DNA of 59,036 bases from the NCBI GenBank assembly GCA_034666665.1, contig JAXDLK010000005.1, positions 1 to 59,036 of the forward strand, read 5' to 3'. Positions within the stretch are counted from its first letter, which is position 1, and each line of letters begins with the position of its first letter. This stretch comes from Candidatus Binatota bacterium (GTDB lineage: Bacteria; Desulfobacterota; Binatia; JACPRU01). This document shows positions 2,278 through 57,554 of this stretch, piece after piece. A program made the position numbers and the translations under genes. The notes beneath the pieces are model-generated. The model was given only the letters and a program-made list of their open reading frames with translations. It was not told the origin of the DNA and did no database searches.

Positions 2278-2288
2278 GGAAGCTCAGC

Positions 2289-6496: not shown

Positions 6497-6498
6497 CC

Positions 6499-26513: not shown

Positions 26514-26654
26514 CGTGTCAATCGAACGCCGCCCGGACGGGAAGCCACAACTGCATGAAATCGCAGCTCTTTCTCGAAGTAGTCCCAAAGAGGCGAGTAG
26601 GTAGTTCCACCGGAATTCGGGAATAATTCCGCAGCCCGGAGATTCTCCCCGACC

Positions 26655-34534: not shown

Positions 34535-34923
34535 GGGTCCTCCTCGACGACGAGGTCGCCGCCCGCGGAGATGCCCGTCAGTCGCACGCGAGTGCCGATT
34601 CGGAGCGGAGCGTCGGCTTGCCTTGCGGCGTGCGCGAGGATTCTCGGGCCGTCGTCCAGGTCGACGTAGGCCAGGGCGTACGGCGGCGTGCGGCCGGGAA
34701 CCGGGATGCGCACCACGGTGGACGACCAGACCGTTCCGAGCGGTCCGAACAGGTCTCCGGCGACTGCAGCGCCGCAAGCCGGACAGCGCAGGCGCGCGAA
34801 CGCCACCGGCAGGCGACACTCGGTGCAACGCACGCCCTCGATCCGCGAGCTGCCGTCTCCGTGGGCGATCAGCCGCGGGCGCGGGTCGGGAGCATCGCAC
34901 GGTCGTGGGGAGATCCCGGTCAC
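34531..34923 (-). CDS. DUF35 Zn-ribbon/OB-fold protein (thiolase partner)
   Basis: The rubredoxin-like ribbon reads CTECRLPVAFARLRCPACG and is followed by an OB-fold region (YALAYVDLDDGPRILA). The GTG start overlaps the RND stop (GTGA). Confidence 0.8.
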   Translation of the reverse strand: MTGISPRPCDAPDPRPRLIAHGDGSSRIEGVRCTECRLPVAFARLRCPACGAAVAGDLFGPLGTVWSSTVVRIPVPGRTPPYALAYVDLDDGPRILAHAARQADAPLRIGTRVRLTGISAGGDLVVEEDP

Positions 34924-37280: not shown

Positions 37281-40123
37281 CGTTCCTCCATCTCTCGCTC
37301 GATCCGCGAACGCGCTTCGGGAAGCGCAGGGTTCGCGGGGTCGAGCGCTTCGAGGCGCCGGACCGTCTCGATCGCTTCCCGGTACCGCTGCGCGCGCTCG
37401 TAGGCATACGCCAGGTTCGACAGATACGCGAAGTTGTCCGGTCGTTCGGTCGCGGCCCGTTCGAGGTACGGGATCGCGTCCGGGAATCGCTCGACCCGCA
37501 GCAACGCGGCCCCGAGCAGCTGGTTCAGGAAATGGTCCGTCGGCTGGATCTCCTGAGCATACGAAGCGAAGCGGATCGTCCGCTCCGGATCGGGTCCGCC
37601 GAGGAGGGTCCGGTAGTCGCTCCCGAGGAACCTCAGGAACCGGCCGCGGAGCTCGGTGAGCAACACGCCGACGTCCGCGTCCCGCGGGTTCAGCCGCCGC
37701 GCGCTTTCCAGGTCCTGAAGGGCCGCGAACGCGGAATCGACGGACGGATCGACGGCGCGGAGCTTGGCATCGAAGAGCTTCCGGCGCGCGGTGAAGACGG
37801 TCTCCGGCAGCCGGGTGGCCCGCGAAAGCGCGGCACCGTCCATGCCCTTCGCGAGGATCTCGAGGTCCATGCGGAAGGTGTTCGGCACCGCGATCCGGTT
37901 GAGCTCCGCGAACTCGACCGAAGCACGGTCGTCCGTCAGGAGCTCGGCACCGCCGCTCAGGCGATCGACGCCGCCGTCGGCGGCGACGACGTATCGGAGC
38001 ACGTCCTCGCCGCGCTCGACGCCCACCGACGCCAGGTCGGCGGCGACTTCCGGCCGCTGCCGCATGCGCGCATCGATCGCCGCGGGATCGACGTCGAGCG
38101 GGGTGAGCGAGCCGATCAGGACCGAGTAGCGCTCGACGAAGAGGACGAGCACGTGGGGAAATGCCGATCGGAACGTCTTCAGCGAGGCGACGAAGTCGGA
38201 CGCCACCATGTTGTGGAGCGGCAGCCACTGGGCGAAGATCCCGCCCGGCGCGAGCTTCGACGAAACGATCCCGTAATACTCCCGCGTGTAGAGCGGCCAG
38301 CTCTCGCCGGCCGCCGGATGCGTCGCGTCCGCCGTGATGACGTCGTAGCGCTCCGTGGTCATGCGCAGGTAGTTGCGGCCGTCGTCGTGGATCAGGCGCC
38401 AGTCCGAGCGCGCCGCCGCGTTGCCGTTCTCCTTGGCGAAGAGCGCCATGGCGTCGCGGACTTCCGGGACCAGCTCGACCGCTTCGACCGTGACGGGATG
38501 CCGCAGCACCGCACCGAGCGTGATGCCGCCGCCGAGCGCGTTCACCAGCACGCGCTGGGGGTGCGGGTGGAGGAGGAGCGGCGTATGGCCGAGCAGCTTG
38601 AAGAGCAGCAGGGCGTCGCGATGGTTCGGCACTTCCTCGATGCAGTTGATCAGGAGGTCGCGCCGATCCCCTACCTGGAAGACGGAGATCGTCCCGAAGG
38701 CGCCCTCGCGGTAATAGAGGAGATCCCCGCGGACGCCTTCGTGTCCGTCGTACCACCGCGTGAGCGTGAGCGGCTCGGCGACGACGAGCGCGATCACGGC
38801 GGCGCCCGCCAGTGGAGCGGCTCCGAGGACGAGCTCGCGGAAGTTCCGCCGGAGCACCACGAGCACGATGACCGCGGTGACGGCGGCGAGCAGGCCCATC
38901 GCGACGAGCGACCGCCCGATGCCGATTCCCGGAATCAGCCCGAAGCCTGCCGTGAGCGCGCCGGCGACGCTGCCGATCGAGTCCGCGGCGAAGACGGTGG
39001 AGACCGCGGGCGCCGCGTCCTCGTCCGCCTCGGATCGGAGTAAGTCGACGAGCAGCGGCAGCAGAAACGCACCCGCCGCCGCCGCGGGGCCGACCGGGAG
39101 GATCGCCACCAGCAGTCGCACGAGGAGGAGGTCGGCCGGCCCGTCGATGACGATGACGTCCGAGAGAGCGCGTGCGACGTCGTAGAGTCGGTTGAGGAGC
39201 GGGATCGACGCGGCGACGTACACGCAGAGGAAGATCTCCACCGCCACGAAGAGCCGAAGGCGGCCGCCGTGCGACACGATCCGTCGGGCGATCGATGCGT
39301 AGAGCCAGGCTCCCACGGCCGATCCGAGAAGCACCGAGGCGAGGATGAGGGAGAACGAGGTGGTGTTGTTCTCGACGACGCAGACGAGCGTGCGGTTCCA
39401 GACCACCTGCAGAGCCATGGTCTGGAAGCCGGCGAGGAACGCCGCGACGCCGAGCGCGAATGCGACCCGGCCGGCACGCGCGCGGGCGGGCACCGGCGAC
39501 GTCTCGATCGCCGGCTCCGCCCTCCCGCGTGATGCGAGGGCCAGTGCCCCGAGGGCCGCCGCGAGGTTCACCGCCACCGCGACGCCGGCACTGGTCGCCG
39601 CTCCGAACCAGCGGATCAGGTACCAGGCGGTCGCGAGCGTACCGACGACGCCGCCGGTGGTATTCGCGGCGAAGAGTCCGGCCGCGGCTTGTCCCGCCGT
39701 ACCCCCCGTCGAGAGAGCGCGCGCGACGACCGGGAGCGTGAGCCCCATGAGGATCGTCGGGGGGAGAAGAGCCGCGAATGCGAGCACCGCGCGCACGGCG
39801 ATCGATCCGCCGGAAGCGACGTACGCCGCGTCCACCGCCGCGTGAACGGCCGGGAACGCGAGGGCGTAGACGGCAACGGCCGCCTCGGCCGCGGCATACA
39901 CGCGGAGCGCCCGGAACCGGGCGAGGCGCGGAGAGCGCCCGAGCGCATAGCCGAGCGACAGTCCGGCCATGAACGCCGCGGTGACCACCGCCACGGAGTA
40001 CGTGGAGACGCCGAAGGACAGCCGGAGCGCTCGCTCCCACAGCACTTCGTAGGCGAGCGCGGAAAACCCGGACAGCAGGAAGAGAGCTTGTACCGCCGCG
40101 CGCTCGAGGCTCGGAGTGGGCAC
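37277..40123 (-). CDS. Membrane-fused spermidine-synthase-like (PABS fold) protein with C-terminal TPR repeats
   Basis: The N-terminus LFLLSGFSALAYEVLWERAL plus ~10 TM helices is typical of fused MFS/spermidine-synthase proteins. The Rossmann region reads VLVNALGGGITLG...YDVITADATHP. The C-terminal TPR region reads AYLSNLAYAYERAQRYREAI. Confidence 0.85.
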   Translation of the reverse strand: MPTPSLERAAVQALFLLSGFSALAYEVLWERALRLSFGVSTYSVAVVTAAFMAGLSLGYALGRSPRLARFRALRVYAAAEAAVAVYALAFPAVHAAVDAAYVASGGSIAVRAVLAFAALLPPTILMGLTLPVVARALSTGGTAGQAAAGLFAANTTGGVVGTLATAWYLIRWFGAATSAGVAVAVNLAAALGALALASRGRAEPAIETSPVPARARAGRVAFALGVAAFLAGFQTMALQVVWNRTLVCVVENNTTSFSLILASVLLGSAVGAWLYASIARRIVSHGGRLRLFVAVEIFLCVYVAASIPLLNRLYDVARALSDVIVIDGPADLLLVRLLVAILPVGPAAAAGAFLLPLLVDLLRSEADEDAAPAVSTVFAADSIGSVAGALTAGFGLIPGIGIGRSLVAMGLLAAVTAVIVLVVLRRNFRELVLGAAPLAGAAVIALVVAEPLTLTRWYDGHEGVRGDLLYYREGAFGTISVFQVGDRRDLLINCIEEVPNHRDALLLFKLLGHTPLLLHPHPQRVLVNALGGGITLGAVLRHPVTVEAVELVPEVRDAMALFAKENGNAAARSDWRLIHDDGRNYLRMTTERYDVITADATHPAAGESWPLYTREYYGIVSSKLAPGGIFAQWLPLHNMVASDFVASLKTFRSAFPHVLVLFVERYSVLIGSLTPLDVDPAAIDARMRQRPEVAADLASVGVERGEDVLRYVVAADGGVDRLSGGAELLTDDRASVEFAELNRIAVPNTFRMDLEILAKGMDGAALSRATRLPETVFTARRKLFDAKLRAVDPSVDSAFAALQDLESARRLNPRDADVGVLLTELRGRFLRFLGSDYRTLLGGPDPERTIRFASYAQEIQPTDHFLNQLLGAALLRVERFPDAIPYLERAATERPDNFAYLSNLAYAYERAQRYREAIETVRRLEALDPANPALPEARSRIEREMEER

Positions 40124-40139: not shown

Positions 40140-40934
40140 TCAGGAGGGGAACTCGAAGTCGAACTCGTCGCCTTCCCCCGTCTCCTCGTCCACGATGGTG
40201 ATCGTCATGCTGCGGTAGTCGCCGCCAGGATAGAAGACGAAACCTTTCGCCGCGTCGCCTTTGCGCAGCAGCGCCGGCGCGATCACCTTCGTGCCGATCT
40301 CCGGGTCGCCCGCGAGCTGGCTGCGTGCGCGGTCCGCGGCGATCGGGGCGGTGTTTCCGCTGCCGCCGGCGCCATGAGCCAACATCTTGGCGGGGTCGAT
40401 GCGGACGTGACGATCTCCGCCGTTGATGATCGTCACGCGCACCGCGGACAGCCCGGCCGAAGACGGATTCACGCTGAACTCCACCGTCGCCTCCGGCCCC
40501 TTGATGAGCTCGGCGTTCACCCGGAGCGCGGTCGGCGGCGGCCAGATCTTGTCGCCCTGCTGGGCGATCTGATGGAAGCTGAAGCGCAGCCCGTCGTCCG
40601 CCCACTTGCCACCGCCGGACGGAGTGACCGAGACGCCCCCGCCGGTGCACTGGACGTCGAGACGCGAAGACGTTGCCCCTTCCCGCGACGCGGTGCTGCC
40701 TTTTTCGCCGGCGACGAATCCACCCGTCGGTCCGCGCCCGGCGTCCGTCAGCTTGTAGCCGTTGGTCTTGAGCGCGCGGGCGGCGTACCGGAAGGCGTCG
40801 GTGCAGGCGATCGGATAAACCTCGTGCGCGATCGGGGCCTCGGAGGGTTGGAGCACGTCGGCGACGCATCCGGCGACGCATCCGAAGGCGCCGATGACGA
40901 GAGCGAGCAGACCGGTGATTTTCGTGCGTTGCAT
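40140..40934 (-). CDS. Hypothetical lipoprotein (264 aa)
   Basis: ATG 40934 gives MQRTKITGLLALVIGAFGCVAGC, which contains a lipobox. The stop lies 16 nt upstream of the PABS-like gene start. The acidic tail reads EETGEGDEFDFEFPS. Confidence 0.65.
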   Translation of the reverse strand: MQRTKITGLLALVIGAFGCVAGCVADVLQPSEAPIAHEVYPIACTDAFRYAARALKTNGYKLTDAGRGPTGGFVAGEKGSTASREGATSSRLDVQCTGGGVSVTPSGGGKWADDGLRFSFHQIAQQGDKIWPPPTALRVNAELIKGPEATVEFSVNPSSAGLSAVRVTIINGGDRHVRIDPAKMLAHGAGGSGNTAPIAADRARSQLAGDPEIGTKVIAPALLRKGDAAKGFVFYPGGDYRSMTITIVDEETGEGDEFDFEFPS

Positions 40935-41075
40935 CGCTCGGCGATCGCCGCGAAGGGCCCTCGCGCTTCTTAGGGACAAAACGCTGACCGGGCAAGCCGA
41001 AGCGTCACGAATGAACGGGTCCTCGGAGCCGTCGGCTGCGTTGACAGGTCGGAACGCCTCGGTTACAGCGACCAC

Positions 41076-41453
41076 ATGGCTAAGGAAGAAACGGCAGCGG
41101 GCCAACAGGAACTCCAGGAGGCGGTCTGGCAGTACACGGGATGGGGTGTGCTGCTCGCCCTCGTCCTCGCATCGGGCACGGTGATCGGGTACCTGCTGTG
41201 GGGCGATGCGCCGAACCTCCGCACGCAGCTTCAAGAGGCGAGTCAGAAGATTCAGGCGGTCCGGTCGGAGCGCGAGAACCTGAATTACGAGATCAGTCGT
41301 TTGAAGCGAGCCAACGAGAAGCTGCAACGAGACCTCGACGCCGCAAAGACGGCTTCGCCTCCTGCGGACGGAGGAGCCGCTGCCGCCACGGGTGGCGCGC
41401 CCGCGGCTGGTGGAGCGCCCGCGACGGGCGGAGCACCCGCCGCCGGTCACTAG
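41076..41453 (+). CDS. Bitopic membrane protein with a coiled coil and a Gly/Ala/Pro-rich tail
   Basis: The TM helix is WGVLLALVLASGTVIGYLLWG. A heptad-rich segment reads LRTQLQEASQKIQAVRSERENLNYEISRLKRANEKLQRDL. Three in-frame 18-nt repeats (41391-41444) encode GGAPAA-type hexapeptides. Confidence 0.6.
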   Translation: MAKEETAAGQQELQEAVWQYTGWGVLLALVLASGTVIGYLLWGDAPNLRTQLQEASQKIQAVRSERENLNYEISRLKRANEKLQRDLDAAKTASPPADGGAAAATGGAPAAGGAPATGGAPAAGH

Positions 41454-41673
41454 CCCGGAGACTCGACTGGCGTCGTTTGGTCGCGGAGTGATCTCCGGCC
41501 GGCTCGCGCCGTCGCTCCCGGGCGATGGTGTCGTGGCCTCCCGCCCGACGGAATCCCGCGATCCCCCGTCCGGTCCCCACTAGCGGCGGCGCTCGCAGAC
41601 GCTTACCCTTGTCAGTGCGCGGGGGGCGTCTCGCCGCACCCGTGCGTCCGCTCGCCTAGAATGGAAGGCCGAC

Positions 41674-42912
41674 ATGGGACAGAAACCCTTCGAAAGTAAT
41701 CGTTCCAGCCCCGAACGCAGCGCTGCCAACTGGTATCCCTGGCTTCGTCGCGGCCGCTTCCGCACCAGCGTCGCGTACCTGGTCTCGCTCGCCATCCACG
41801 CCGGAATCTTTCTTCTCCTGCTTGCCACCGTCGTGCTCGATGGTGGCGGCGGTCCAGGCGACAGTTACGGCGGTGAGGGCAAGCTGTTCTCGCTCCTCTC
41901 CGGCCATGGACGGCTCGACTATCAGACCGAGCGGATGGAGAAGTCCGACTCGCTCCACGAGGAGATCGCCAAGGCGGTTCAGCAGGTCGAGCCGTTGCCG
42001 GAGGTCACCAACGAAGAGGTCGTTCCGGAGATCGCCGAGGAGGGGGTGAAGCTCGCCGCCGTGGCCCCCCGGATCAACACCGTTCCGCAGGCCGCTTCGA
42101 GCATGCGCAACATGGCGCCGGCGTCGACCGGCGGCGGCATGGCGCTCGGACCGGGCGTGGGTGCCGGCGGCGGGCTCGGTGGAGGCATCGGCCGCGGATT
42201 CGGGCGCGGATTCGGCGACTTCGTCGGCCTCCTGCAGAAGTGGGGATTCGACGCGGTCTTCGTGATCGATGCGACGAACAGCATGGAGTTTGCGATCTCC
42301 GCCGTTCGCGGCCGCATCGCGGATCTGGTCGGTGACATCCAGCAGCTGGTGCCGAATGCCCGGGTCGGCCTCGTCGTCTACAAGGACAAGGGTGAGGACT
42401 TCGTCGTGCGGAAGTCCGACCTCTCGTTTCGATTGGAGAAGCTCCGCGCGTTCGTATCCAGCGTCGAGACCAGCGGCGGCGGCGACTACGAGGAGGGAGT
42501 GCTCGACGGTTTGCGCACGGCGGTTCAGGAGATCACGTGGCGGCAGTACGCTCATCGGGTGATCGTCCTGGTGCCGAGCTCGCCGCCGCGCCGTGACGAA
42601 ATGCCGGAGATCGAGAGCCTCGTCACCGGATTCCACTCGAAGGGCGGGATGCTCCACGTGATCGACCTCGCGGATCTGATGCACGTGAACTTCGAGCGCG
42701 AGTTCGAGAAGCGCATGTACGGAAAGGAACCGGAGAAGATCACGGCTCTGCCGGACTTCTATCGCGACATGCAGACGTTCTTCACCAGGCTGGCGGGCGA
42801 GGGCGGCGGCCAGATGATCGCGCTCCAGAGCAAGCAAGCGATCACGGAGCAGCTGCTGATCGCGGCCTTCGGACCTCGCTGGAAGGCCGAGGTCGCGAAG
42901 CTGTCCAAATGA
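41674..42912 (+). CDS. Membrane-anchored VWA domain protein with a TonB/TolA-like SxxxH anchor
   Basis: GGAAGG precedes the ATG. The N-terminal TM is YPWLRRGRFRTSVAYLVSLAIHAGIFLLLLATVV (compare E. coli TonB RRFPWPTLLSVCIHGAVV). The VWA core reads AVFVIDATNSM...VGLVVYKDKG...SGGGDYEEG. Confidence 0.8.
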   Translation: MGQKPFESNRSSPERSAANWYPWLRRGRFRTSVAYLVSLAIHAGIFLLLLATVVLDGGGGPGDSYGGEGKLFSLLSGHGRLDYQTERMEKSDSLHEEIAKAVQQVEPLPEVTNEEVVPEIAEEGVKLAAVAPRINTVPQAASSMRNMAPASTGGGMALGPGVGAGGGLGGGIGRGFGRGFGDFVGLLQKWGFDAVFVIDATNSMEFAISAVRGRIADLVGDIQQLVPNARVGLVVYKDKGEDFVVRKSDLSFRLEKLRAFVSSVETSGGGDYEEGVLDGLRTAVQEITWRQYAHRVIVLVPSSPPRRDEMPEIESLVTGFHSKGGMLHVIDLADLMHVNFEREFEKRMYGKEPEKITALPDFYRDMQTFFTRLAGEGGGQMIALQSKQAITEQLLIAAFGPRWKAEVAKLSK

Positions 42913-42979
42913 CCGCGAGGCTCTGCGAGTGAACGCCAAGCTCTGCAAATGAGCGCGAAGCTCTGCAAATGAAGCGGAT
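42900..42979 (+). repeat. Four tandem 20-bp units spanning the VWA stop and the TPR start
   Basis: The units are gctgtccaaatgaccgcgag, gctctgcgagtgaacgccaa, gctctgcaaatgagcgcgaa and gctctgcaaatgaagcggat. They generate three 7-codon mini-ORFs, each overlapping its neighbour by ATGA or GTGA: 42909-42932 MTARLCE, 42929-42952 VNAKLCK and 42949-42972 MSAKLCK. Confidence 0.9.
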
Positions 42980-45290
42980 CCTTCGGTTCGTCGCGCTGCT
43001 GCTGTTTCCCACCATGGTCTCGGCAGCGACCCTCGCCGAGGTCTCCGGCGGCGTCGACCGCGCCGTACGCGGCGGCATGTCCGAGGCGGAGGAACAGTCG
43101 CTCCTCGGCAGCCTGGGTACGATCTCGGCGGAGGTCGCGGATCGCTACGATGCCTGGACGCGCAGTGGAAGCTCGGAGAGCCGCGGCGCGGCCACCGGTC
43201 TCGCCGACGCGCTACTCCCGGTCTTGGAGCGCCTGCACCGGTACCATCAGGACGCGATCGATCGGATGCAGAACGCGATCATCGCCGTCGATGGCAATCC
43301 CGAAGTCCTCTACGGACAGCGAGAGTGGCAGGTGCATCGAGGGTTCGCGCTCGCGTCCATGGGGCAGCTGGCCTGGCTCTACTATCGCTGCGCGATGCTT
43401 CACCCCGAGAAGAAGGAAGCGCGGAACGATTGGCTCCGCCGCGCGGTCGAGGGCTTCGGCGACTTCATCTTCGCCGAAGATCCGCGCTTGCGGGACGAGA
43501 GTCTCCTCGGGCGGGCGCTGGCGGAGCGCGAGCTCGGAGAGTGGGACCCGGCGAAGAACGATCTCCGTGCGGTGATCGAGCGCGGCAAGGGAGGACCGCT
43601 CTACTGGGCCGCGCGCGTGACGCTCGCCGAGGTCGCCGTCGCCGCGGGTGGGCCAGGGGCGCTGACCGAGACCGAGAACCTGCTTCGCGAGGCCGGCGGC
43701 GGATCCCTCGACACCATCCAGCAAGCGCGGTTCCTGCGCTTTCAGGCGCTGTCGGAAGCCGCCCGTCGCGGGGGTGGCGAGGGGCTCCGTCGCGAGGCCC
43801 GCGGTCTCGCCGCCGCGCTCGCCGAGGGAGGCCCGGTCTGGTCGAAGCGCGTCCAGGAGGTCGCGATGGGAGCGCACCGGGACCCGCGCGAGGTCCTCGG
43901 CGACAGCGCTCCGGCGGAATGGCAGGCGGCGGAGAACTTCGCGAGCGAGGACAAGCTCCGCGAGGCGGCGCCGCTCTACGAGCGCGTGCTCAAGAGCCCG
44001 GACCGGCAGCACGCCACGCTCGCACATCAGCGGCTCGGGGTCTGCTATTTCCGTCTCGGCCGGTTCGCCGATGCGGAGCGCGAGTTCCGGACGTTCCTGA
44101 ACGCGGCGCCCCGTTCGGCGCTCGCATCCGAGGCTTCGTTCCTGCGCTTCCGCGCCGCCGAGGGCGTGTACCGTGGCCGTCCGACGAAGGAGACGCGCGA
44201 GCTCTTCCGCGGCGCCGTGCAAGCGTTCGTGCAGGCATACCCAAAGCACGAGAGCGCCCACGAGGCGTTCTACCGCTGGGGCGAGCTGCTGCAGGCCGAC
44301 CGTCGCTGGCAGGAAGCGGCCGACGCGTACGCGCGCGTCCGGGGCGCACCGGTATTCGAGCTCCGCGCGGCGGCGTCGGAAGTCCAGTGCCTCGCCGAGG
44401 CGATGGTGGCGCCGGCGAAGGACGCAAAGCCCGAATGGTTCGAGCGCACGAGACGGCGCGCGCGAGAGGCCTTCTCCCGCTTTCAGAAGCTCGCCGCGCG
44501 CGCGCCGAAGGACGAGTCGATGCCGGACCTTCGCGCTCGTGCGACGCTGTCGAGCGCGATGGTGGAGGTGAGCGGTCCCGGAGGACGTCCGGAGCCGGCG
44601 GTCCAGGCGCTCGGAGGATTCGAGAAGACGTATCCGACGGCGAAGGACCTGCATCCGCTCGCCGGCGCGCTGCGGCTCTCCGCGCTGAACCAGCTCGGCC
44701 GTCTCGAGGAAGCGGAGACGAACCTCCCCGTGTGGTTGGCGAGCGTCGACGGAGCACGCCCGGAGATCAGCGAGAAGCTCGCGACGGCGTTCCTCCATAC
44801 CTCGATCGACTCCGCGCCGGACGACGCCGCGAAGAGCAGGCGCTGGGCGGTCTTGGCGTCGCGGGTCTTCGACCGACTGAAAGCAGAGGGCCGGCCGCTG
44901 CCCGCCGAGGCGAAGCCGGTGCTGGCGCCGATCTACACCGAGGAAGGCCGGCTCGCGGAGGCGGCGCAGCTCTACCGGGAGCTGCTCGCCACCACGCCAT
45001 CCTCGAAGTCCCTGCTGCGCAGTGCGGCGATGGTGGCGGACCAGCTCGGTGCCTTCGCGGAAGCTGCGGATTACTGGACGCGGCTGGCGAAACGCCAGGA
45101 GGTGGCTTCTCCCATCTGGTACGACGCGCGGCTGAACGGTGCCCGCGCGCTCTTTCGCGCGGGCAACAAGCAACGGGCGTGCGCAGAGATCCGTGAGGTG
45201 AACGCCTTCCGGCCCGACCTCCGCGATGCGGCGACGCGGACGAAGTACGATCAACTCGCCGCTCAGACGTGCGGTCCGGCGGCCTGCTGA
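42969..45290 (+). CDS. Secreted TPR-repeat protein (773 aa)
   Basis: The signal peptide is MKRILRFVALLLFPTMVSA. The body is all-helical and Ala/Leu/Arg/Glu-rich with recurring TPR-like W/Y..A...Y..L patterns. Confidence 0.8.
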   Translation: MKRILRFVALLLFPTMVSAATLAEVSGGVDRAVRGGMSEAEEQSLLGSLGTISAEVADRYDAWTRSGSSESRGAATGLADALLPVLERLHRYHQDAIDRMQNAIIAVDGNPEVLYGQREWQVHRGFALASMGQLAWLYYRCAMLHPEKKEARNDWLRRAVEGFGDFIFAEDPRLRDESLLGRALAERELGEWDPAKNDLRAVIERGKGGPLYWAARVTLAEVAVAAGGPGALTETENLLREAGGGSLDTIQQARFLRFQALSEAARRGGGEGLRREARGLAAALAEGGPVWSKRVQEVAMGAHRDPREVLGDSAPAEWQAAENFASEDKLREAAPLYERVLKSPDRQHATLAHQRLGVCYFRLGRFADAEREFRTFLNAAPRSALASEASFLRFRAAEGVYRGRPTKETRELFRGAVQAFVQAYPKHESAHEAFYRWGELLQADRRWQEAADAYARVRGAPVFELRAAASEVQCLAEAMVAPAKDAKPEWFERTRRRAREAFSRFQKLAARAPKDESMPDLRARATLSSAMVEVSGPGGRPEPAVQALGGFEKTYPTAKDLHPLAGALRLSALNQLGRLEEAETNLPVWLASVDGARPEISEKLATAFLHTSIDSAPDDAAKSRRWAVLASRVFDRLKAEGRPLPAEAKPVLAPIYTEEGRLAEAAQLYRELLATTPSSKSLLRSAAMVADQLGAFAEAADYWTRLAKRQEVASPIWYDARLNGARALFRAGNKQRACAEIREVNAFRPDLRDAATRTKYDQLAAQTCGPAAC

Positions 45291-45340
45291 AGGCGGGCGG
45301 ATCGCGAGCCGCGGGGAGCGAACGAGGGAGGAACGCACGA

Positions 45341-45994
45341 ATGGAAGTGGCTGGAACTTTGAGCGTGATGGATCTGATCCGCCAGGGCTGGTACGCGACG
45401 TACCCGCTGATCGGCTTCTCGGTGATCATGATGAGCATCGTGATCGAACGCATGTGGGCGCTCAGCCGCATCGGCCCCGGGGTCGAGCGGCTGACCGGCG
45501 AGGTCGTGGACCTGCTGCAGAAGGGCGACATCTCCGGGACCACGACGCTGCTCGAAGGGCGGCGGCGGCGGACGCCGGCCTCGCGCATGTACGCCGCGAT
45601 CGTGCCTCTGCTCGGCCGCGGGCCCCTCGACGAGGTGCTCGAGCTCGGCGAGCGGCGCCGGCTGGACGAGAGCCGCTGGTTCCGCCGCAACATCTGGGTG
45701 CTCGGAACGATCGCAGCTTCGGCGCCGTTCATCGGTCTCTTCGGCACGGTGGTCGGCATCATCAAATCGTTCCACCAGATGGCGGTGATGGGTACCGGCG
45801 GGTTCTCCGTGGTCGCCGCCGGCATCTCCGAAGCGCTGGTCGCGACCGCGCTCGGACTGATCGTCGCGATCGTCGCGGTGATCTTCTACAATTATCTCCA
45901 GGTGAAGGTCGGCAATCTCGACACCACGATGCGCGTCGGATTGGGCCAGGTGGTCGAGGCTGCCACCCTCGGGGGCGTACATGGCGCTCGGTAA
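45341..45994 (+). CDS. exbB: MotA/TolQ/ExbB proton-channel family protein
   Basis: GAGGGAGGA precedes ATG 45341. Motifs seen: GTIAASAPFIGLFGTVVGII and GISEALVATALGLIVAIVAVIFYNYL. Confidence 0.9.
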   Translation: MEVAGTLSVMDLIRQGWYATYPLIGFSVIMMSIVIERMWALSRIGPGVERLTGEVVDLLQKGDISGTTTLLEGRRRRTPASRMYAAIVPLLGRGPLDEVLELGERRRLDESRWFRRNIWVLGTIAASAPFIGLFGTVVGIIKSFHQMAVMGTGGFSVVAAGISEALVATALGLIVAIVAVIFYNYLQVKVGNLDTTMRVGLGQVVEAATLGGVHGAR

Positions 45995-46460
45995 GCTCGG
46001 CGGCGGTGACGGCGGCGAAGGCGCCGACGTCATGGCCGAGATCAACATCACGCCGCTCACCGACATCTTCCTGGTGCTGCTGATCATCTTCATGATCACG
46101 CAGTCGGCGCTGGTGGAGTCGGCCGCGAAGGTGAACCTGCCGAAAGCCACGCAGACCACGCAGGAATCCCGCGGCGTCACCGTGACCGTGACCAAGGACG
46201 AACGCATCTTCGTGAACCAGCTTCCCGTCGACGAGGCGCAGCTCCAGGGCACGTTGCAGGACCTGCTCGCCGACGATCCCCGGAAGCTCGTGATCCTCCA
46301 GGGGGACCGTTCCGTCATGCTCGGCGAGGCCGTCCGCCTGATGGACATCGCCAAGCGCGCCGGGGCGCAGGCGATCTCGATTTCGGCGGAGAAGGAAGAG
46401 TCCCCCGCCGGCTCCGCACCGGCCGTGCCCTCGGCCGCGCCGGCCGCGCCGGCGCAGTGA
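45981..46460 (+). CDS. exbD: ExbD/TolR biopolymer transport protein
   Basis: EINITPLTDIFLVLLIIFMI carries the conserved TM Asp. It overlaps exbB by 14 nt. Confidence 0.9.
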   Translation: MALGKLGGGDGGEGADVMAEINITPLTDIFLVLLIIFMITQSALVESAAKVNLPKATQTTQESRGVTVTVTKDERIFVNQLPVDEAQLQGTLQDLLADDPRKLVILQGDRSVMLGEAVRLMDIAKRAGAQAISISAEKEESPAGSAPAVPSAAPAAPAQ

Positions 46461-46461
46461 C

Positions 46462-47112
46462 GTGGACACCGCCCTCGACCTGATCCTCCATCTCGACCAC
46501 CACCTCGTCGCGCTGACACAGGCGGCCGGTGCGTGGACGTACGTGATTCTCTTTGCCATCGTCTTCTGCGAGACCGGCCTCGTGGTGACGCCGTTCCTTC
46601 CCGGCGATTCGCTGCTGTTCACGGTCGGGGCGATCGCGGCGAGCGGCGGCCTCGATCCGGCGGCTGCCGCCGTGCTGCTCGCCATCGCCGCGATCACGGG
46701 CGACTCGGTGAACTACTGGATCGGGAATGTCGTGGGCCCGCGGGTCTTCCGCCAGGAGGACTCGCGCTGGCTCGACCGGCGGCACCTCGACCGCACGCGC
46801 GAGTTCTTCGAGCGCTACGGCGCGAAGACCATCGTCATCGCCCGGTTCGTGCCGATCGTGCGAACGTTCGCGCCGTTCGTCGCGGGGATCGGCCGCATGG
46901 CGTACCGCCGGTTCTTCTTCTACAACGTCGCGGGCGGGATCGCCTGGGTCGGCGGGCTGGTCGGCGCCGGCTACTGGTTCGGCAATCTGCCGGCCGTGCG
47001 AGAGAATTTCTCGCTGGTGATCCTGATGATCATCGTGCTGTCGATCCTCCCGGCGATCGTCGAAGCTCTCCGCACACGCGTGCGGCCGCCTCGCCCGGCC
47101 GCGGGAGTTTGA
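46462..47112 (+). CDS. dedA: DedA family (VTT domain) membrane protein
   Basis: The GTG start lies 1 nt after the exbD stop. Motifs seen: FCETGLVVTPFLPGDSLLF, GAKTIVIARFVPIVRTFAPFVAG and YRRFFFYNVAGGIAW. Confidence 0.88.
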   Translation: MDTALDLILHLDHHLVALTQAAGAWTYVILFAIVFCETGLVVTPFLPGDSLLFTVGAIAASGGLDPAAAAVLLAIAAITGDSVNYWIGNVVGPRVFRQEDSRWLDRRHLDRTREFFERYGAKTIVIARFVPIVRTFAPFVAGIGRMAYRRFFFYNVAGGIAWVGGLVGAGYWFGNLPAVRENFSLVILMIIVLSILPAIVEALRTRVRPPRPAAGV

Positions 47113-47186
47113 GCGGAGCTCCGCCGCCGCGAGCGTCATTGAAGCGCCGACGGCGCTGAGCTATCAGTCGGCCTCTCGGACACCCC

Positions 47187-49160
47187 ATGAAAACGCGTTC
47201 GGGGCGCAAGTCGAAGGACGACCCTGTCGCGCGACGGAGAGCCGGCAAGCAGAAGCCCGATCTGCAGACGCCGCCTCCGAGAGCGGAGCGCCGGCGTCTG
47301 GAGAAGAAGAGCGGACGGGAAACGTCCGCCTTCGCGGCGCCGCTCCGGCTCGCGCTCGTGCCGCCACTGATCCTGGCGGCACTTTCCCTGCTCCCTCGGG
47401 TCGGCGCGAACCCATGGCTCAGGTCGTCCTTCTGGGGGGCAGCGCTGGCGCTCGTCCTCATGCAAGCGGTTCTCTGGCAGCAAGTGCGCCGCACCGGACG
47501 CACTCTCACCTGCCAGGTGGTTCCGCTGCCGGTGCATTGGGTGCAGGCCAGCATGCAGGCGTGCATCTACGCGTACTGGGGATCGTACTGGCCCGAGGTC
47601 TACCGCCACGTGCCGCTGATCGTGGCGCAGATCGTCCTCGTCTACGGCTTGGACATGCTGGTCTCCTGGTTCCGGCGGGACCAGTGGGTCCTCGGCTTCG
47701 GGCCGTTTCCCATCGTTCTCAGCACGAACCTCTTCATGTGGTTCAAGGACGACTGGTTCTTCCTCCAGTTCCTCATGGTGGCGACCGGAGTGCTCGGCAA
47801 GGAGTTCATCAAGTGGACGCGCGACGGCCGCCGCACGCACATCTTCAATCCGTCGGCGCTGTCGCTGTTCCTCTTCTCGGTGGGTCTGATCGTCACGCAC
47901 TCGACCGACATCACCTGGGGACCGGAGATCGCCGCCACGATCGGTCTTCCCCCGCGGATGTACCTGTGGATCTTCCTGGTCGGTCTGGTGGTCCAGGGGC
48001 TCTTCTCGGTGACGCTGGTCACGCTCTCCGCGGCCGCGACCTTGTTCGCGCTGAACCTCGTCTACACCGGGTCGACGGGGATCTATCACTTCATCATCAC
48101 GAACATCCCGGTGGCGGTCTTCCTCGGGCTCCATCTACTGGTCACCGACCCCGCGACGTCGCCGCGGAGACCATTCGGCAAAGTGCTGTTCGGCGCCGCG
48201 TATGGCGTCAGCGCCTTCGCGCTCTTCGGCCTGCTCGGCCGTGTCGGAATTCCCACCTTCTACGACAAGCTCCTCTGCGTCCCCGTCCTCAACCTGACCG
48301 TCCGGGTGCTCGATCGAATCAGCGACGCGCTCGCGGCACGCTTCCGTGTCCCGATGGTCTTTCCGGAGTGGAGCCCTCGGGCGAGTAACCTCGCGGCCAT
48401 GGCGGTTTGGGCGTCGCTCTTCGTGACCATGTCGGCGAGCGGCTTCCTCGGTCGCGATCACCCCGGACGCGATGCCGAGTTCTGGCGGCGCGCGTGCTCG
48501 GAGGGCCGGCGGAGCGGCTGCGAGACCTGGGTGATGTTCCTCGAAGCCTCCTGCCAGGCGGCGGACGGCGAATCCTGCAAGATGCTCGGGGACCTCAAGC
48601 GGGATGGCCGCGTCGTGCCGGCGAACCGGCTCGAAGCGGGGAAGAGCTTCGGTCGCGCCTGCGACGTGGGGCTCGCGGAAGGATGCGACGAGCTGAAACG
48701 GTTCGCCGACGCCGACGGGCGCGCGGTCTTCGAGAAGTCGTGCGCCGGCGGGGACAGCTACAGCTGCTTCGTCCTCGGCGAGGTGCACGCGCACGGCCTC
48801 GGCGTTTCACAGGACCGTCACGCGGCGATCGAGTTCTTCGAACGATCCTGTGCCGGCGGCTGGCCGCGCGGGTGCGGGCGCCTCGGCGAGGTGTACCTCC
48901 TCGGCGAAGGCACGCCCACGGACGTCGGCAAGGCGGTCGAGAATTTCGAGAAAGCCTGTCGAGGCGGCCACGCGGCGAGCTGCTCCGCCGTGGCCATGGT
49001 GTATCGCCGCGGGATCGGCGGCCTCGGCAACGAGACGCTCGCGGACGAACGTCAGCGGCAAGCGTGTCGCCTCGGGCTTTCCGCCGCGTGCTCGCCAGGA
49101 GACGCTCCCGCGTCCGCCGGGGCGGTGGCGCCAATCGACGTCCTTCGGCTCGGCGGCTAG
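47187..49160 (+). CDS. Polytopic membrane protein (RnfD/NqrB-like motifs) fused to C-terminal Cys-rich Sel1-like repeats
   Basis: The N-terminal tail is highly basic and is followed by ~10 TM helices. Motifs are HIFNPSAL (47844-47855 = FNPS) and LLVTDPATSP (48144-48164). The C-terminal ~225 aa carry six CxxxxxxxC pairs in the pattern A..fF.kAC.gG...gC..LG..Y..G.G, as in Hcp/SLR proteins. Confidence 0.75.
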   Translation: MKTRSGRKSKDDPVARRRAGKQKPDLQTPPPRAERRRLEKKSGRETSAFAAPLRLALVPPLILAALSLLPRVGANPWLRSSFWGAALALVLMQAVLWQQVRRTGRTLTCQVVPLPVHWVQASMQACIYAYWGSYWPEVYRHVPLIVAQIVLVYGLDMLVSWFRRDQWVLGFGPFPIVLSTNLFMWFKDDWFFLQFLMVATGVLGKEFIKWTRDGRRTHIFNPSALSLFLFSVGLIVTHSTDITWGPEIAATIGLPPRMYLWIFLVGLVVQGLFSVTLVTLSAAATLFALNLVYTGSTGIYHFIITNIPVAVFLGLHLLVTDPATSPRRPFGKVLFGAAYGVSAFALFGLLGRVGIPTFYDKLLCVPVLNLTVRVLDRISDALAARFRVPMVFPEWSPRASNLAAMAVWASLFVTMSASGFLGRDHPGRDAEFWRRACSEGRRSGCETWVMFLEASCQAADGESCKMLGDLKRDGRVVPANRLEAGKSFGRACDVGLAEGCDELKRFADADGRAVFEKSCAGGDSYSCFVLGEVHAHGLGVSQDRHAAIEFFERSCAGGWPRGCGRLGEVYLLGEGTPTDVGKAVENFEKACRGGHAASCSAVAMVYRRGIGGLGNETLADERQRQACRLGLSAACSPGDAPASAGAVAPIDVLRLGG

Positions 49161-49295
49161 GGCGCGGTCCGAGCCGTGCAGGCCCGCTCCGAGCTGGCGA
49201 GGAGCATGTTGGGCCCCCGAGCTCTTCTGCGAGGGCTGGACCATCTGCGCCCGCGAGCTCTTCCGCGAGCGCGTTCGGCCGGGTTGGGTCGGTGG

Positions 49296-50144
49296 CTAGG
49301 AAGTCTTCTCGGCCGCGGCCGGCTCTCGCGCGGCGGGCGCCACCTCGTACTCGAGGAGCTCGATCCGGGTGCGCTCCTTCTCGCGCCGCGCGTCGTCCCA
49401 CTGCTCGGTGCGGATGAGGCCCACCCCGGGGGCGTACCAATCGGAGTAATAGAAGACGATCTCCTCGCCGTTCTTGCCCGACCCCGGACCTTGCGTGGAA
49501 TAGGTGTCGATGCGGACGCAGTCCTCGAAGCTTCCCGCCGGCACCTGAACGGCCTTCGTCTCGATTGCCGCCGAGTGGCGATGGCTGACGTTGAAGCCGA
49601 GGCCGCTCATTCCGCCGCCCACGCGGAACGCCTGCGTCGCGCTCTCCCACTTCGCACCGTCGTCGAGGACCACGGGCAGATACCGGGTGTCGCCCGAGCC
49701 GCTGGCCTGCACGAGCTTGCCCGCCTGCAGCGTCATGAACATGCGGTGCAGGAATCCCTCGTTGCGAAAGTAGATGATCGGCTCCGACTCCTCGACGTAG
49801 AAGGGGCCGCCCTCGCTGGAGTAGCGCTCGGTCACCTCGATGCCTTCGCCGCCGAGCGCCTCGTAGTACTTCGGGCCGTGAACCTGGACCTTGTTCACGT
49901 AGGTCCACTTCTTCGCGAGGTCCAGGACCCGGTACGTCCAGTGACTTCGCGGCGTCAAGGGAAAATACTTCTCGACGGGGATGCGACTGGTCGCCGCGGG
50001 CTGCTTCGCGACGGGTCGGGGGCCGCCGCCCGGCCGCGACCAGCCACACGCGGCGGCGAGCGTCAGAGTCGCGAGGAGGAGGCAGGGGAGGGCGAGTCGG
50101 ACGCCCCGATCGCTCTCCCGCCGCTCTCCTCGCGTTTCGCTCAC
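49296..50144 (-). CDS. Hypothetical lipoprotein (282 aa) at the end of envelope module 2
   Basis: The lipobox is LATLTLAAAC. The gene starts 7 nt after the DUF1302 copy 2 stop. The product is beta-rich with the motif YYSDWYAPGVGLIRTE. I recognise no family. Confidence 0.65.
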   Translation of the reverse strand: MSETRGERRESDRGVRLALPCLLLATLTLAAACGWSRPGGGPRPVAKQPAATSRIPVEKYFPLTPRSHWTYRVLDLAKKWTYVNKVQVHGPKYYEALGGEGIEVTERYSSEGGPFYVEESEPIIYFRNEGFLHRMFMTLQAGKLVQASGSGDTRYLPVVLDDGAKWESATQAFRVGGGMSGLGFNVSHRHSAAIETKAVQVPAGSFEDCVRIDTYSTQGPGSGKNGEEIVFYYSDWYAPGVGLIRTEQWDDARREKERTRIELLEYEVAPAAREPAAAEKTS

Positions 50145-50151
50145 ACTCCGA

Positions 50152-52203
50152 TCAGAGCAGGTAGTACTCGAGCCGGACGAAGAGGTTGTCGCGGTCCGCG
50201 TACTTGTGAAGGAAGAGGAAGCTCTCGGCGTCCTTGCTTCCCATGTACATGATGTCGCCGAAGCGAATGGCGAACTTGTTGGTGAGGAAGTACTGCATCT
50301 GCAGCCAGGCGACGTGCGTCTGCGCGTTCACGTCGTAGCCGTACGCCCAGAAGGGACGCAGCTTCTGGTTCATGAAGAAGCCGGTCATGACGTACGTGAG
50401 CACCGGGTTGTAGTGCTGCATGCGATCGGTGACGGAATCGAGGAGCCCGATCTGTCCGTCGACGTGCGGGTAGTACTCGTTGAAGAACTGGAACGTGAAG
50501 AACCACTGGTCGGTCAGCCACGTCGACAGCCATTTCCGCGAGCGGATCCATGGCGGCGGTTTCGGATAGATGGTGCGCAGGTAGTCGAAACCGATCATGC
50601 TCCGCCACGCGCCGGTGGTGCGCTTCCCGTGACTCTCGAAGTCACGCGTCGCGGGGAAGTTGCCGGCACGAGGTCCGGCGAGGGGCGGCGCGCCATTCCG
50701 CGGCTCCTTCGTCGAGTAACTCTGCTCGACGCGCCAGATGAACCCCGTGTAGTCGAAGTCGTTATACGTGAGCGTCCCGCCGATGATGTGCGTCCACGGG
50801 TACCAGAAACCGACCATCTCGCAGCCGGTGGCGCCGTTGACGGTCTCGTACGCGGTGTTCGTCTGGTCGTCGAAATTGTAGTGCGGACCGTGCATGCCTT
50901 TGAGGATGATCGTCGGCCTTTGATCGTAGATGCACCGCGCGACCGCTCGGTCCTGCCCGTCCGGGACACCGTTGCCGTCGTTGTCGGGTGTCGCGAGATC
51001 CGCTGCGGCTCGCGCCAGCGAGTAGTGGTCGTCGGGACCAATCGCGTCGTCCGCTTCGGCGCCGGTGCGGAAGTTGTTCATGTTCCCGTTCTCGTCGGAC
51101 GGCCGCGCGGGATCGAAGAGATCGGACACACGCAGCGCCGTACCCGGGACTTCGCTCTTCTTGAAGATGTAGTTGAGCGTGAAGTCGAGACCGGCGAACG
51201 TCTGGCCACCGAAGCGAAAGCCGAACATGCTCGTATCCACATCGAGCACGTTCGTGGGCACTCCGTTCTGCAGAAGATAGACGAAGTCACCACAACGCAG
51301 GCCCTGGGGTCCGTCCGCGCACCCAGGTGCGGGCGCGAGATCCGCCTGGTCTGGTGCATCCGTCCGATGCGTGCCGACGCGCGTCACCTCCCACGGAGCG
51401 CGCACCATGCGCCAGGGTAGGATGTTCGGCCGGCGGAACGTCGGTGAGTTGAACGTTGGCGAGCCGCTCGGACATCCGTCGGCCGAGGGGCAGTAGTTTT
51501 GGTCGACACCGATGCGGAACGCCTCGCTCACCAGGATCCGGTCCGTGAGCGGCCGCCAGTTGGGTGACCAGAAGGCTTCCAAGTACGAGTTCTCCGCAAC
51601 GAATGGCACCGGCCCGATCGAGTACAGGGCCTTGGCGATCCACAGCGGCTCTCGGTAGTCGTCGAAGTCCTCGCCGATGAGACCATTCTGGTCGAGACGC
51701 AGCGGGTTGATGACGTCGAGCGACCGGAAGAGGTCCGCCTCGCCCCATACCACCTGCTGCTTGCCGAGCCGCAGCGACAGACCGTCGATCGGCTCGGTGA
51801 AGGAGACGTCGAAGAACAGCTCCCGAGGAATCTTGCCTTCCGGGAACCGGAAGTCGTCGCGCTGGTATCCGCGCTTCTTGTACCTGTCGACGAGGTCGTA
51901 CACCGCGTCGTAACGCGCGCGGTACAGCATGTTGAAGCGGACGTTGTTGATCGGCCCCGCCGTCACCCCTTGTGGCAGCAGGAAGTAACGCAGGTCGAAG
52001 CGGAATTCGTTCCGCCACTGCGCCCACTCGATATCGTTGATCGAGTTATGATGGAACGTGTTCTGAACCGTGACCGTCGAGGCAGCCTCGATTCGCTGGT
52101 CCCCCGACATGTACGAGGCGTGCGCCATCCCTGCGCACGCCAGCATCGTCAGCATGGCCACCGCGGGCGCCCACCGCGGCAGTCTTCGTCCGTGCCCTTT
52201 CAT
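50152..52203 (-). CDS. DUF1302-family outer-membrane protein (copy 2)
   Basis: ATG 52203 follows AAGGGGGG. The signal peptide ends ACAGMAHA. LRLGKQQVVWGEADLFRSLDVINPL is paralogous to copy 1. Confidence 0.8.
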   Translation of the reverse strand: MKGHGRRLPRWAPAVAMLTMLACAGMAHASYMSGDQRIEAASTVTVQNTFHHNSINDIEWAQWRNEFRFDLRYFLLPQGVTAGPINNVRFNMLYRARYDAVYDLVDRYKKRGYQRDDFRFPEGKIPRELFFDVSFTEPIDGLSLRLGKQQVVWGEADLFRSLDVINPLRLDQNGLIGEDFDDYREPLWIAKALYSIGPVPFVAENSYLEAFWSPNWRPLTDRILVSEAFRIGVDQNYCPSADGCPSGSPTFNSPTFRRPNILPWRMVRAPWEVTRVGTHRTDAPDQADLAPAPGCADGPQGLRCGDFVYLLQNGVPTNVLDVDTSMFGFRFGGQTFAGLDFTLNYIFKKSEVPGTALRVSDLFDPARPSDENGNMNNFRTGAEADDAIGPDDHYSLARAAADLATPDNDGNGVPDGQDRAVARCIYDQRPTIILKGMHGPHYNFDDQTNTAYETVNGATGCEMVGFWYPWTHIIGGTLTYNDFDYTGFIWRVEQSYSTKEPRNGAPPLAGPRAGNFPATRDFESHGKRTTGAWRSMIGFDYLRTIYPKPPPWIRSRKWLSTWLTDQWFFTFQFFNEYYPHVDGQIGLLDSVTDRMQHYNPVLTYVMTGFFMNQKLRPFWAYGYDVNAQTHVAWLQMQYFLTNKFAIRFGDIMYMGSKDAESFLFLHKYADRDNLFVRLEYYLL

Positions 52204-52356
52204 CACACTACCCCCCTTTTTCCCTGGTATCGCCGCGAGGGACCCGCACGAAGGCATAATGGGCGCATGGAGATCGGCCGGCGCCCTCCGGCCCGGGTTC
52301 CGCGTCGCGGTTAACTCACCACACCTCTTCTCTTCCCGTCGACGTTTCGAATCGCG

Positions 52357-53466: not shown

Positions 53467-53781
53467 TATCCGAGATCCTCCTGTGCGTTGGATCGATCCG
53501 GCCGGAGCGATCGTGGGATCGCGCAGCCTCGCCGCACCGAGCCTGTCCACTCGAGCCTTCCGCCCCCATCGAAGCCTGGCTTACCTACAATGCTTTCGGC
53601 GTGCCCGCCAGCCCTGAAACGACGCGGCGTTCCGCGTTTCCCTTCCGTGGATCGATGCTCCGGAAAATACCCCGACCCTCGCTCCACCCCAGCGGAAGTG
53701 CGAAGGAATCGACAGGTAGCTTCAGGCGCGGCACCCGGTCAAGAGCCGATCCGCTCGACCTCGTCGGGCAGCGGCGATCGG

Positions 53782-57458: not shown

Positions 57459-57488
57459 TCGTTCACCCTCTTTTCCTTTTCGCGTAAA

Positions 57489-57504
57489 AGCCCGCGACTT
57501 GCCA
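57489..57504 (-). promoter_or_regulatory. Candidate sigma-54 -24/-12 element upstream of the TolB-like gene
   Basis: The minus strand reads TGGCAAGtcgcGGGCT. The GG-N10-GC spacing is correct, but the -12 flank is GGGC instead of TTGC. It lies about 30 nt upstream of the TTG start. Confidence 0.3.
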
Positions 57505-57554
57505 GTGCTCGTTCGCTCTCGATAAGGAGATCCGGAAGAGCGACGTTGCTGCAG

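Follow-up and report, generated by a model that had tools for sequence, protein, structure and literature searches.

A VWA-domain protein as the probable TonB-like partner of an ExbB-ExbD motor in Candidatus Binatota

Introduction

What does an ExbB-ExbD motor drive when neither TonB nor TolA is encoded beside it? This question is raised by a gene cluster at positions 41674-47112 (plus strand) of a 59,036-bp contig from a Candidatus Binatota metagenome-assembled genome (MAG), the whole of which is called the window below. In this cluster, genes for ExbB- and ExbD-type proteins follow those for a membrane-anchored von Willebrand factor A (VWA) protein and a secreted tetratricopeptide repeat (TPR) protein. 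Ton and Tol are the two established routes by which Gram-negative bacteria bring inner-membrane proton-motive energy across the periplasm. An earlier note, made from the letters of the sequence, had proposed that the VWA protein is the TonB-like partner of the motor. Our analysis supports this as the probable answer, as the anchor helix has an invariant Ser/His pair, the genes stay linked in four gene orders, no TonB or TolA is found in the cluster, and the motor residues are intact.

Results

Features of the cluster

The features that carry the argument are listed by coordinates and strand.

41674..42912, plus strand: VWA protein, 412 aa (Pfam VWA_4/VWA_2/VWA; AlphaFold2 (AF2) model; Foldseek)
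41752..41838, plus strand: its transmembrane helix, residues 27-55 (AF2 predicted local distance difference test (pLDDT) 83-92)
41839..42210, plus strand: its periplasmic linker, about residues 56-179 (Gly-rich and acidic; low AF2 confidence)
42268..42282, plus strand: its loop resembling a metal ion-dependent adhesion site (MIDAS), D199-A-T201-N-S203 or DATNS (homologue alignment)
42969..45290, plus strand: TPR protein, 773 aa, secreted (Pfam TPR families)
45341..45994, plus strand: ExbB/TolQ-type proton-channel subunit, 217 aa (PF01618, 99.8 bits)
45981..46460, plus strand: ExbD/TolR-type subunit, 159 aa (PF02472, 98.1 bits; 14-nt overlap with ExbB)

Gene calls and spacings agree with the MAG's own annotation (QOD06_75..82), and the gene list, spacings and helix peptide of the earlier note were correct. 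The VWA protein is 100% identical to a database entry, the NCBI 'hypothetical protein QOD06_77'. The ExbB gene is present as claimed, but the earlier start implied for it is not the annotated one, which is the ATG at 45341 and is confirmed by an exact match to MEA2624034.1.

The anchor helix of the VWA protein

In the VWA protein, a short basic cytoplasmic N-terminus (YPWLRRGRFR) is followed by a single transmembrane helix, from which a linker of some 125 residues leads to the VWA domain at the C-terminus. We found 115 homologue clusters for it, and the AF2 monomer model was built on 29 homologues. In an alignment of 29 homologues with 31-67% identity, Ser38 (nt 41785-41787) and His42 (nt 41797-41799) are the sole invariant residues of the first 130, while position 49 is Leu in 20 and Phe in 7. 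The range first given for the helix, nt 41764-41838, corresponds to residues 31-55, and the peptide quoted with it begins 10 residues earlier. When aligned with E. coli TonB by hhalign, S38 falls on TonB S16 and H42 on TonB H20. Only the helix is aligned and the probability is as low as 1.8%, so the alignment informs the register and is no evidence of homology.

The pattern extends well beyond close homologues. A profile search of 1.84 billion representative proteins returned 447 relatives at E <= 1e-30 and 6,393 at E <= 1e-10, and Ser-x3-His was present in the helix of all 38 inspected distant representatives with a match that reaches this region. Many of these have the context 'RRAPWFxLSxxxH', which is near to 'RRFPWPTLLSVCIH' of E. 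coli TonB. Among 295 control 21-mers resembling transmembrane segments, taken from the other genes of the window and from 85 loci, none contained Ser-x3-His and 25 contained any His. The SxxxH signature that the earlier note had read in this helix is thus conserved in VWA homologues, near and distant.

The linker and the VWA head

The linker contains 29 Gly, 17 Asp/Glu and 8 Pro in 130 aa. The AF2 pLDDT is below 50 at residues 57-88 and 111-177, and one linker helix is predicted at 82-103. Homologues share a conserved 'GKGExFSxLxGHG' stretch, and the paralogues have a TonB-like, strand-like 'RELIMVNLE' motif. A conserved GFGRGFGDF junction precedes the VWA domain and aligns with the GFGVSGVNFFG junction of transducers from Tichowtungia, which are discussed below.

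The VWA domain covers residues 180-411, with AF2 pLDDT above 90 and a Pfam match to PF25106 (36.6 bits, cut-off 27). With this model, the top Foldseek match was BatB (3ibs, E = 2.9e-9), followed by integrin beta I domains; the E-values of these matches range from 1e-8 to 1e-9. The MIDAS variant DATNS mentioned in the earlier note was located at D199 to S203. In the homologue alignment D199, S203 and E274 are invariant and position 201 is Thr or Ser, and DxTxS occurs in 92 of the 94 open reading frames (ORFs) of the family in related loci. Position 302 is Ser, Asp or Asn, where a classical MIDAS has Asp.

The ExbB-ExbD motor

ExbB and ExbD are clear, above-threshold members of PF01618 and PF02472. 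They score below all NCBIfam equivalog cut-offs for TolQ, ExbB, TolR and ExbD, and therefore belong to neither canonical subfamily; for the Tol models the values are 102 versus 221 bits (TIGR02796, TolQ) and 82.8 versus 127.3 bits (TIGR02801, TolR). T136, E164 and T169 of ExbB align with T148, E176 and T181 of E. coli ExbB (5sv0), and D28 of ExbD aligns with D25 of E. coli ExbD (6tyi). The transmembrane Asp of ExbD and Glu of ExbB are therefore retained, as had been noted earlier, and since the Thr/Glu/Thr set of ExbB is kept together with the ExbD Asp, the motor looks active.

Search for TonB or TolA

Nearly every other gene of the window was scanned with Pfam and none had a TonB_C or TolA domain, and the same was true for the neighbours of the VWA gene in L025, one of the related loci described below. 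Searches by tblastn with five TonB/TolA sequences gave nothing in 84 related loci and nothing below E = 0.03 in the window. The best-looking window match (6445-6654) lies inside an alpha/beta-hydrolase gene and was rejected. No TonB-dependent transporter was seen in the cluster. The statement that the cluster lacks a TonB C-terminal domain and a TolA-like protein therefore holds. Additionally, a TonB co-transcribed just outside the window is excluded, because the operon is followed by 12 kb of window with genes on the opposite strand.

Conservation of linkage

We collected 84 related loci, 4 by protein look-ups and 80 by a scan of species-representative genomes. Almost all are from Binatia MAGs, some of which are mislabelled. 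ExbB and/or ExbD directly adjoin the VWA gene in 63 of the 84, usually together with the TPR gene. Four gene orders were seen: VWA-TPR-ExbB-ExbD, which is the order of the window (A), ExbB-ExbD-VWA-TPR (B), ExbB-ExbD-ExbD-VWA in Binataceae (C) and VWA-ExbB-ExbD-TPR (D). That the module persists in four orders is strong evidence of functional coupling. Two distant representatives had usable contigs, and they encode a HEAT-repeat protein, a 754-aa protein, ExbB, ExbD, ExbD and VWA (L087), and VWA, ExbB, ExbD and TPR (L088).

In orders A-C, the ExbB encoded beside VWA shares 46-71% identity with the ExbB of the window, whereas second ExbB copies in the same loci share only 26-34%. The motor therefore appears to be dedicated to this module.

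Such second copies are found in many order-B loci, where a divergent ExbB, mostly accompanied by ExbD, lies downstream of the TPR gene (L025 at 11348-12419, L002, L023, L024, L026, L033, L035-L037, L040-L043, L045-L048, L050, L054, L057 and L059). In L025 the TPR gene is immediately followed by the second pair, after which comes a spermidine-synthase-like gene and not a TonB. Genes with a spermine/spermidine-synthase domain recur by these clusters (window 37277-40123, minus strand; L002 14939-15844; L025 12508-13416), and the window protein has a polytopic membrane N-terminus and C-terminal TPRs.

The earlier note had described a run of six genes. All six are present, but comparison with the 84 related loci removes two of them from the conserved system. 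DedA stands beside VWA/ExbBD in the window only. The 125-aa coiled-coil ORF at the start of the run forms a singleton cluster, and none of the related order-A loci has it ahead of the VWA gene. Its G+C content at third codon positions is 0.73, compared with 0.84-0.90 in its neighbours, and the opposite frame scores the same. A 657-aa membrane/Sel1 protein encoded after DedA was likewise rejected as a part of the system. Since DedA, the 125-aa ORF and the 657-aa protein have no counterpart in any of the 84 loci, the conserved module is four genes, namely ExbB, ExbD, the VWA protein with its transmembrane helix and linker, and the TPR protein.

The TPR protein

The N-terminus of the TPR protein resembles a signal peptide (MKRILRFVALLLFPTMVSA/A) and has no lipobox Cys. 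Orthologues with 23-54% identity lie directly beside VWA in orders A, B and D, and 46 columns are at least 90% conserved across 52 of them. The invariant acidic residues include E177, D198, E432 and E552. Several orthologues have been named 'TolA-binding protein' by the Joint Genome Institute (JGI). The match to the YbgF/CpoB model TIGR02795 is sub-threshold (51.5 bits, cut-off 90.1), as is a weak match to BamD. The AF2 model is all-alpha with 38 helices and a mean pLDDT of 89.9. The Foldseek matches were all generic long TPR scaffolds, with TM-scores near 0.2, among them Ctr9, Ski3 and IFT-A, and thus no functional assignment can be made from structure. The same list, otherwise made up of eukaryotic scaffolds, includes, as at most a weak lead with a TM-score of 0.21, chain K of 9hmf (773 aa), a flagellar-motor scaffold of Campylobacter jejuni. 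This is a periplasmic TPR scaffold around a 5:2 stator.

Relation to published vWA force transducers

A class of 'vWA force transducers' was described by Williams-Jones et al. (Mol Biol Evol 2025; PMC12204202). These proteins have an SHLS helix and are encoded beside TPR-tolQ-tolR genes, with Tichowtungia aerotolerans (Kiritimatiellota) as the type example. In the AlphaFold 3 (AF3) models of that study the conserved His lies on the motor at the site of TonB/TolA, and the class is distributed over Proteobacteria, Planctomycetes, Verrucomicrobia, Bacteroidetes and Rhodothermaeota (PMC12204202). The word Binatota is absent from that paper. The earlier note had called force on a VWA and TPR assembly a new output for this motor family, which cannot be maintained, as the same mechanism was already proposed from genomics in 2025 (PMC12204202). 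The kind of transducer is thus already published as a computational hypothesis, and the window adds a member in a phylum unnamed there.

We compared the window protein with two Tichowtungia aerotolerans transducers taken from the supplement of PMC12204202. Direct comparison by BLASTP was not significant (E = 0.063), although colinear over the linker and junction, and the window family profile matched a single Tichowtungia sequence with 17% probability. Comparison of the Binatia and Tichowtungia family profiles gave 94.2% probability (E = 1.2e-7, 137 columns). This match takes in the Gly-rich junction ('GFG..F.G') together with two thirds of the VWA domain but leaves out the helix, and since VWA domains are homologous in general, it is no proof of a common origin of the whole architecture. 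The Tichowtungia family alignment contains 23 sequences without Pfam VWA matches, in which S31 and H35 are at least 90% conserved.

The two families share an N-terminal SHLS-type helix, a disordered linker of about 100 aa, a C-terminal vWA fold, and a neighbourhood of TPR, tolQ/exbB and tolR/exbD genes. The Binataceae order ExbB-ExbD-ExbD-VWA is the order published for the vWA force transducers. They differ in that the Tichowtungia family is without the full DxT/SxS loop (consensus DASKxM), whereas the Binatia family keeps DxTxS and E274. The window has one ExbD and one transducer, against two heterologous ExbD and two or three transducers in Tichowtungia; the Tichowtungia locus (L085) reads VWA (781 aa), TPR (938 aa), a 262-aa protein, ExbB, ExbD, ExbD, VWA, VWA. 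Gene order and phylum also differ. Judging from these comparisons, the Binatia family is best described as a distinct, MIDAS-retaining and probably remotely homologous branch of the vWA force transducers.

Relatives fused to anti-sigma-type and FHA modules

In one subgroup of paralogues, from Binataceae, two VWA genes stand in tandem and neither ExbB nor ExbD is encoded within 8 kb (L070 at 5119-8675, L053, L061, L064, L067, L069, L071, L074, L076, L078, L080 and L081). In L070 a gene for a sigma factor of the extracytoplasmic function (ECF) type (Sigma70_r4_2) comes before the first VWA gene, which overlaps its end. The product of this VWA gene has an N-terminal HxxxCxxC motif of the anti-sigma type, a transmembrane helix with 'PLSVAIHLVL' (SxxxH), a TonB-like stretch 'REFIMVNLE-GGGGG' and a VWA domain. 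It resembles an anti-sigma factor for which a motor-binding helix of the TonB type serves as the base. Contig CAWFDW010000005.1 has both a tandem pair (L069) and an ExbB-ExbD-ExbD-VWA locus (L077).

Another set of relatives, 530-730 aa in length, combines a cytoplasmic FHA domain, the helix 'RRAPWFxLSxxxH', an acidic linker, VWA_4 and a C-terminal helical-repeat extension (P0371, P0372, P0379, P0382, P0390, P0403, P0411, P0413-P0415, P0418, P0419, P0424, P0425, P0427, P0431 and P0433). Pfam confirmed both FHA and VWA in all six that were tested.

Genomic surroundings

The following features adjoin the four-gene module.

37277-40123, minus strand: spermidine-synthase/TPR membrane protein, 948 aa (upstream, divergent from the operon)
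40140-40934, minus strand: lipoprotein-like ORF (upstream of the cluster)
41076..41453, plus strand: 125-aa ORF with transmembrane and coiled-coil segments (doubtful; sub-threshold coiled-coil Pfam matches only)
46462..47112, plus strand: DedA-family membrane protein (NF008102, 259 bits, cut-off 236; 1-nt gap after ExbD)
47187-49160, plus strand: membrane/Sel1 protein, 657 aa (74 nt after DedA; minus-strand genes then follow)

Given the 1-nt gap, DedA is probably co-transcribed with ExbBD. The 657-aa protein has a polytopic membrane domain with a weak RnfD/NqrB-like match and a Cys-rich C-terminal domain of Sel1 repeats. A scan of 40800-49400 gave no promoter-like sites and 7 terminator-like sites, compared with 3.6 +/- 2.5 expected. 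None of them was at a plus-strand gene boundary, and the scan therefore set no limits to the operon.

An MMPL transporter gene also lies upstream, on the strand opposite to the cluster. Elsewhere the window has two sets of DUF1302 outer-membrane-type proteins with BNR/YCF48-like beta-propellers, and also DUF1329/LolA-like, DUF3108-like and MMPL/RND transporter genes (20383-23553, plus strand; 25109-26902, 34920-37250 and 49296-53580, minus strand). This suggests that repeated modules for envelope transport of lipids or hydrophobic compounds flank the operon. At 1087-3332 (minus strand), 38 kb away, a MoxR-like AAA_5 ATPase adjoins a VWA_CoxE protein, which is an unrelated second VWA system.

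Discussion

We consider it probable that the VWA protein is a TonB-like force transducer which docks through its SxxxH helix on an active ExbB5-ExbD2 motor while its head holds a ligand. This is favored because the AF2 anatomy is TonB-like, with a transmembrane helix, a disordered linker and a globular head, and because the same mechanism was proposed independently for architecturally identical proteins (PMC12204202). ExbB and ExbD would then form a proton-driven, stator-type motor in the inner membrane, with a 5:2 stoichiometry, as is suggested by the families to which they belong and by their retained Asp, Glu and Thr residues. The helix of the VWA protein would dock at the periphery of the ExbB pentamer through its Ser38/His42 face, the Gly-rich acidic linker would span the periplasm, and the head would grip its ligand by a largely intact MIDAS-type site (D199-x-T201-x-S203, E274). 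Proton flux through ExbBD might pull or rotate the helix and thereby put force on whatever the head holds. The secreted TPR solenoid would be an obligate partner, either as the gripped target, as an adaptor to a target in the outer membrane, or as a CpoB-like binder of the linker.

Several observations weigh against this picture. The fourth SHLS position is V53, which is Val or Ile across the 29 homologues and not Ser. The linker is Gly-rich and acidic, neither Pro-rich nor helical, and the AF2 monomer model predicts no 'motor box' beta-strand after the helix. The last MIDAS Asp is replaced by Ser in the subgroup of the window, while more distant members have Asp. In 21 of the 84 related loci, mostly of the paralogous Binataceae subgroup, the VWA gene has no adjacent motor, and linkage is therefore not universal. 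A TonB encoded elsewhere in the genome may share the motor. Furthermore, for the published class the function is unknown and deletion phenotypes are unreported (PMC12204202).

The fused relatives raise the possibility that the VWA protein binds the motor by its SxxxH helix and yet acts as a sensor, regulator or signalling device, either as a mechanosensitive or ligand-gated switch of motor activity or as a relay of signals from periplasm to cytoplasm. The Binataceae paralogues, which fuse the SxxxH helix and VWA domain to HxxxCxxC after an ECF sigma gene with no adjacent motor (L070), and the cytoplasmic FHA domain before the helix in many distant relatives both point to signalling through the helix. 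However, in the window protein itself just some 26 residues lie in the cytoplasm, and a signalling domain is lacking. Certain TonB-like proteins, such as GltG and GltJ of Myxococcus, are still regarded as force transducers although they have a cytoplasmic FHA or Zn-finger domain, and a role in signalling does not exclude one in force transduction. We find pure signalling an unlikely role for the window protein. The TPR gene brings in another possibility, namely that the cluster is a divergent Tol-Pal-like system for envelope maintenance, with ExbB/ExbD as TolQ/TolR, the VWA protein in place of TolA, and a TPR protein of the CpoB/YbgF type that binds this TolA counterpart and coordinates outer-membrane or peptidoglycan processes. 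ExbB and ExbD do score slightly higher on the TolQ/TolR than on the ExbB/ExbD NCBIfam models, the TPR protein has its sub-threshold matches to YbgF and BamD, and the JGI name of several of its orthologues agrees with such a role. The Gly-run right after the transmembrane helix also resembles that of E. coli TolA. Nevertheless, every Tol-specific model stays far below its cut-off, and the solenoid, at 773 aa, is roughly three times as large as CpoB. Neither TolB nor Pal domains turned up in the window, in L025 or in the called genes of L001, L002, L087 and L088; a lone PD40-repeat protein at 56172-58031 is on the opposite strand, 9 kb away. A role as a Tol-Pal variant thus seems improbable to us.

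It could also be argued that the genes are neighbors by coincidence, with ExbB-ExbD serving a TonB elsewhere and the VWA and TPR proteins forming an unrelated Bat-like pair. BatB is the closest solved structure to the VWA domain, Bat operons combine membrane VWA proteins with TPR proteins, and ExbBD pairs without an adjacent tonB are common. But the linkage is kept through four gene orders and in distant lineages, and an invariant Ser/His pair in the TonB register is hard to explain without a motor partner. Moreover, Pfam found no MoxR or DUF58 gene beside the cluster among the window genes, and many loci have a second, different ExbBD pair that would be able to serve TonB. Chance adjacency is accordingly the explanation we find least credible.

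If the VWA protein is a force transducer, its metal-site motif suggests a further, more speculative step, which we think doubtful. The Binatia-type proteins might be a functionally separate, integrin-like branch in which ExbBD, pulling with proton-motive energy, gates by a catch bond or by 'inside-out activation' whether an acidic ligand is captured or released in a metal-dependent way. The co-encoded TPR solenoid or a target in the outer membrane might carry this ligand. Considering the FHA and anti-sigma fusions, the module could also signal across the envelope as a motor-powered device.

If true, a signalling module of this kind would stand with Ton (import) and Tol (envelope integrity) as a third functional class. 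A third head group on the same anchor would make the ExbBD/TolQR motor a general-purpose periplasmic actuator. To the 2025 proposal our results add a phylum unnamed there, of whose genomes sampled here nearly all have the module, and a recognisably VWA branch whose retained metal-site motif suggests a testable binding chemistry. They also put the size of the family at an estimated 447 representative clusters (E <= 1e-30) and add the variants fused to FHA and anti-sigma modules. Binatia themselves are not known in culture. The four-gene module offers a well-delimited target for AF3 modelling, interaction tests and genetics.

Comparison with known systems places the module between several of them. 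With TonB it shares the motor family. Both transducers have an N-in single-pass anchor with a basic/aromatic patch and with Ser-x3-His-x6-Leu in matching register, and in both a long flexible linker leads through the periplasm to a globular head at the C-terminus. Unlike TonB, the VWA protein has no TonB_C (PF03544), and its linker has 8 Pro versus 29 Gly. The head is a VWA domain with a metal-site motif, and target recognition can therefore not be the beta-strand addition of a TonB box. With TolA and Tol-Pal it would share a 5:2 motor with an SHLS-anchored transducer and a periplasmic TPR partner; CpoB binds TolA. Unlike in Tol-Pal, the cluster contains no TolA C-terminal domain, TolB or Pal. 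BatA/BatB-BatC resemble it in that membrane-anchored VWA proteins are encoded beside TPR proteins, but Bat operons have a MoxR-type ATPase and DUF58 genes and are not known to include ExbBD, which is present here.

The Agl-Glt gliding machinery of Myxococcus also couples a TolQR-type motor (AglRQS) to TonB-like transducers, GltG and GltJ. GltG carries an N-terminal FHA domain, as do distant relatives of the window VWA protein. The Glt transducers keep TonB_C-like domains and the VWA domain of Glt is carried by a separate outer-membrane lipoprotein, while in the window it is the transducer's own head. No other glt genes are present in the window cluster. The gliding machinery also includes the TPR proteins GltD/E and the VWA adhesin CglB (PMC11761067, PMC9946355).

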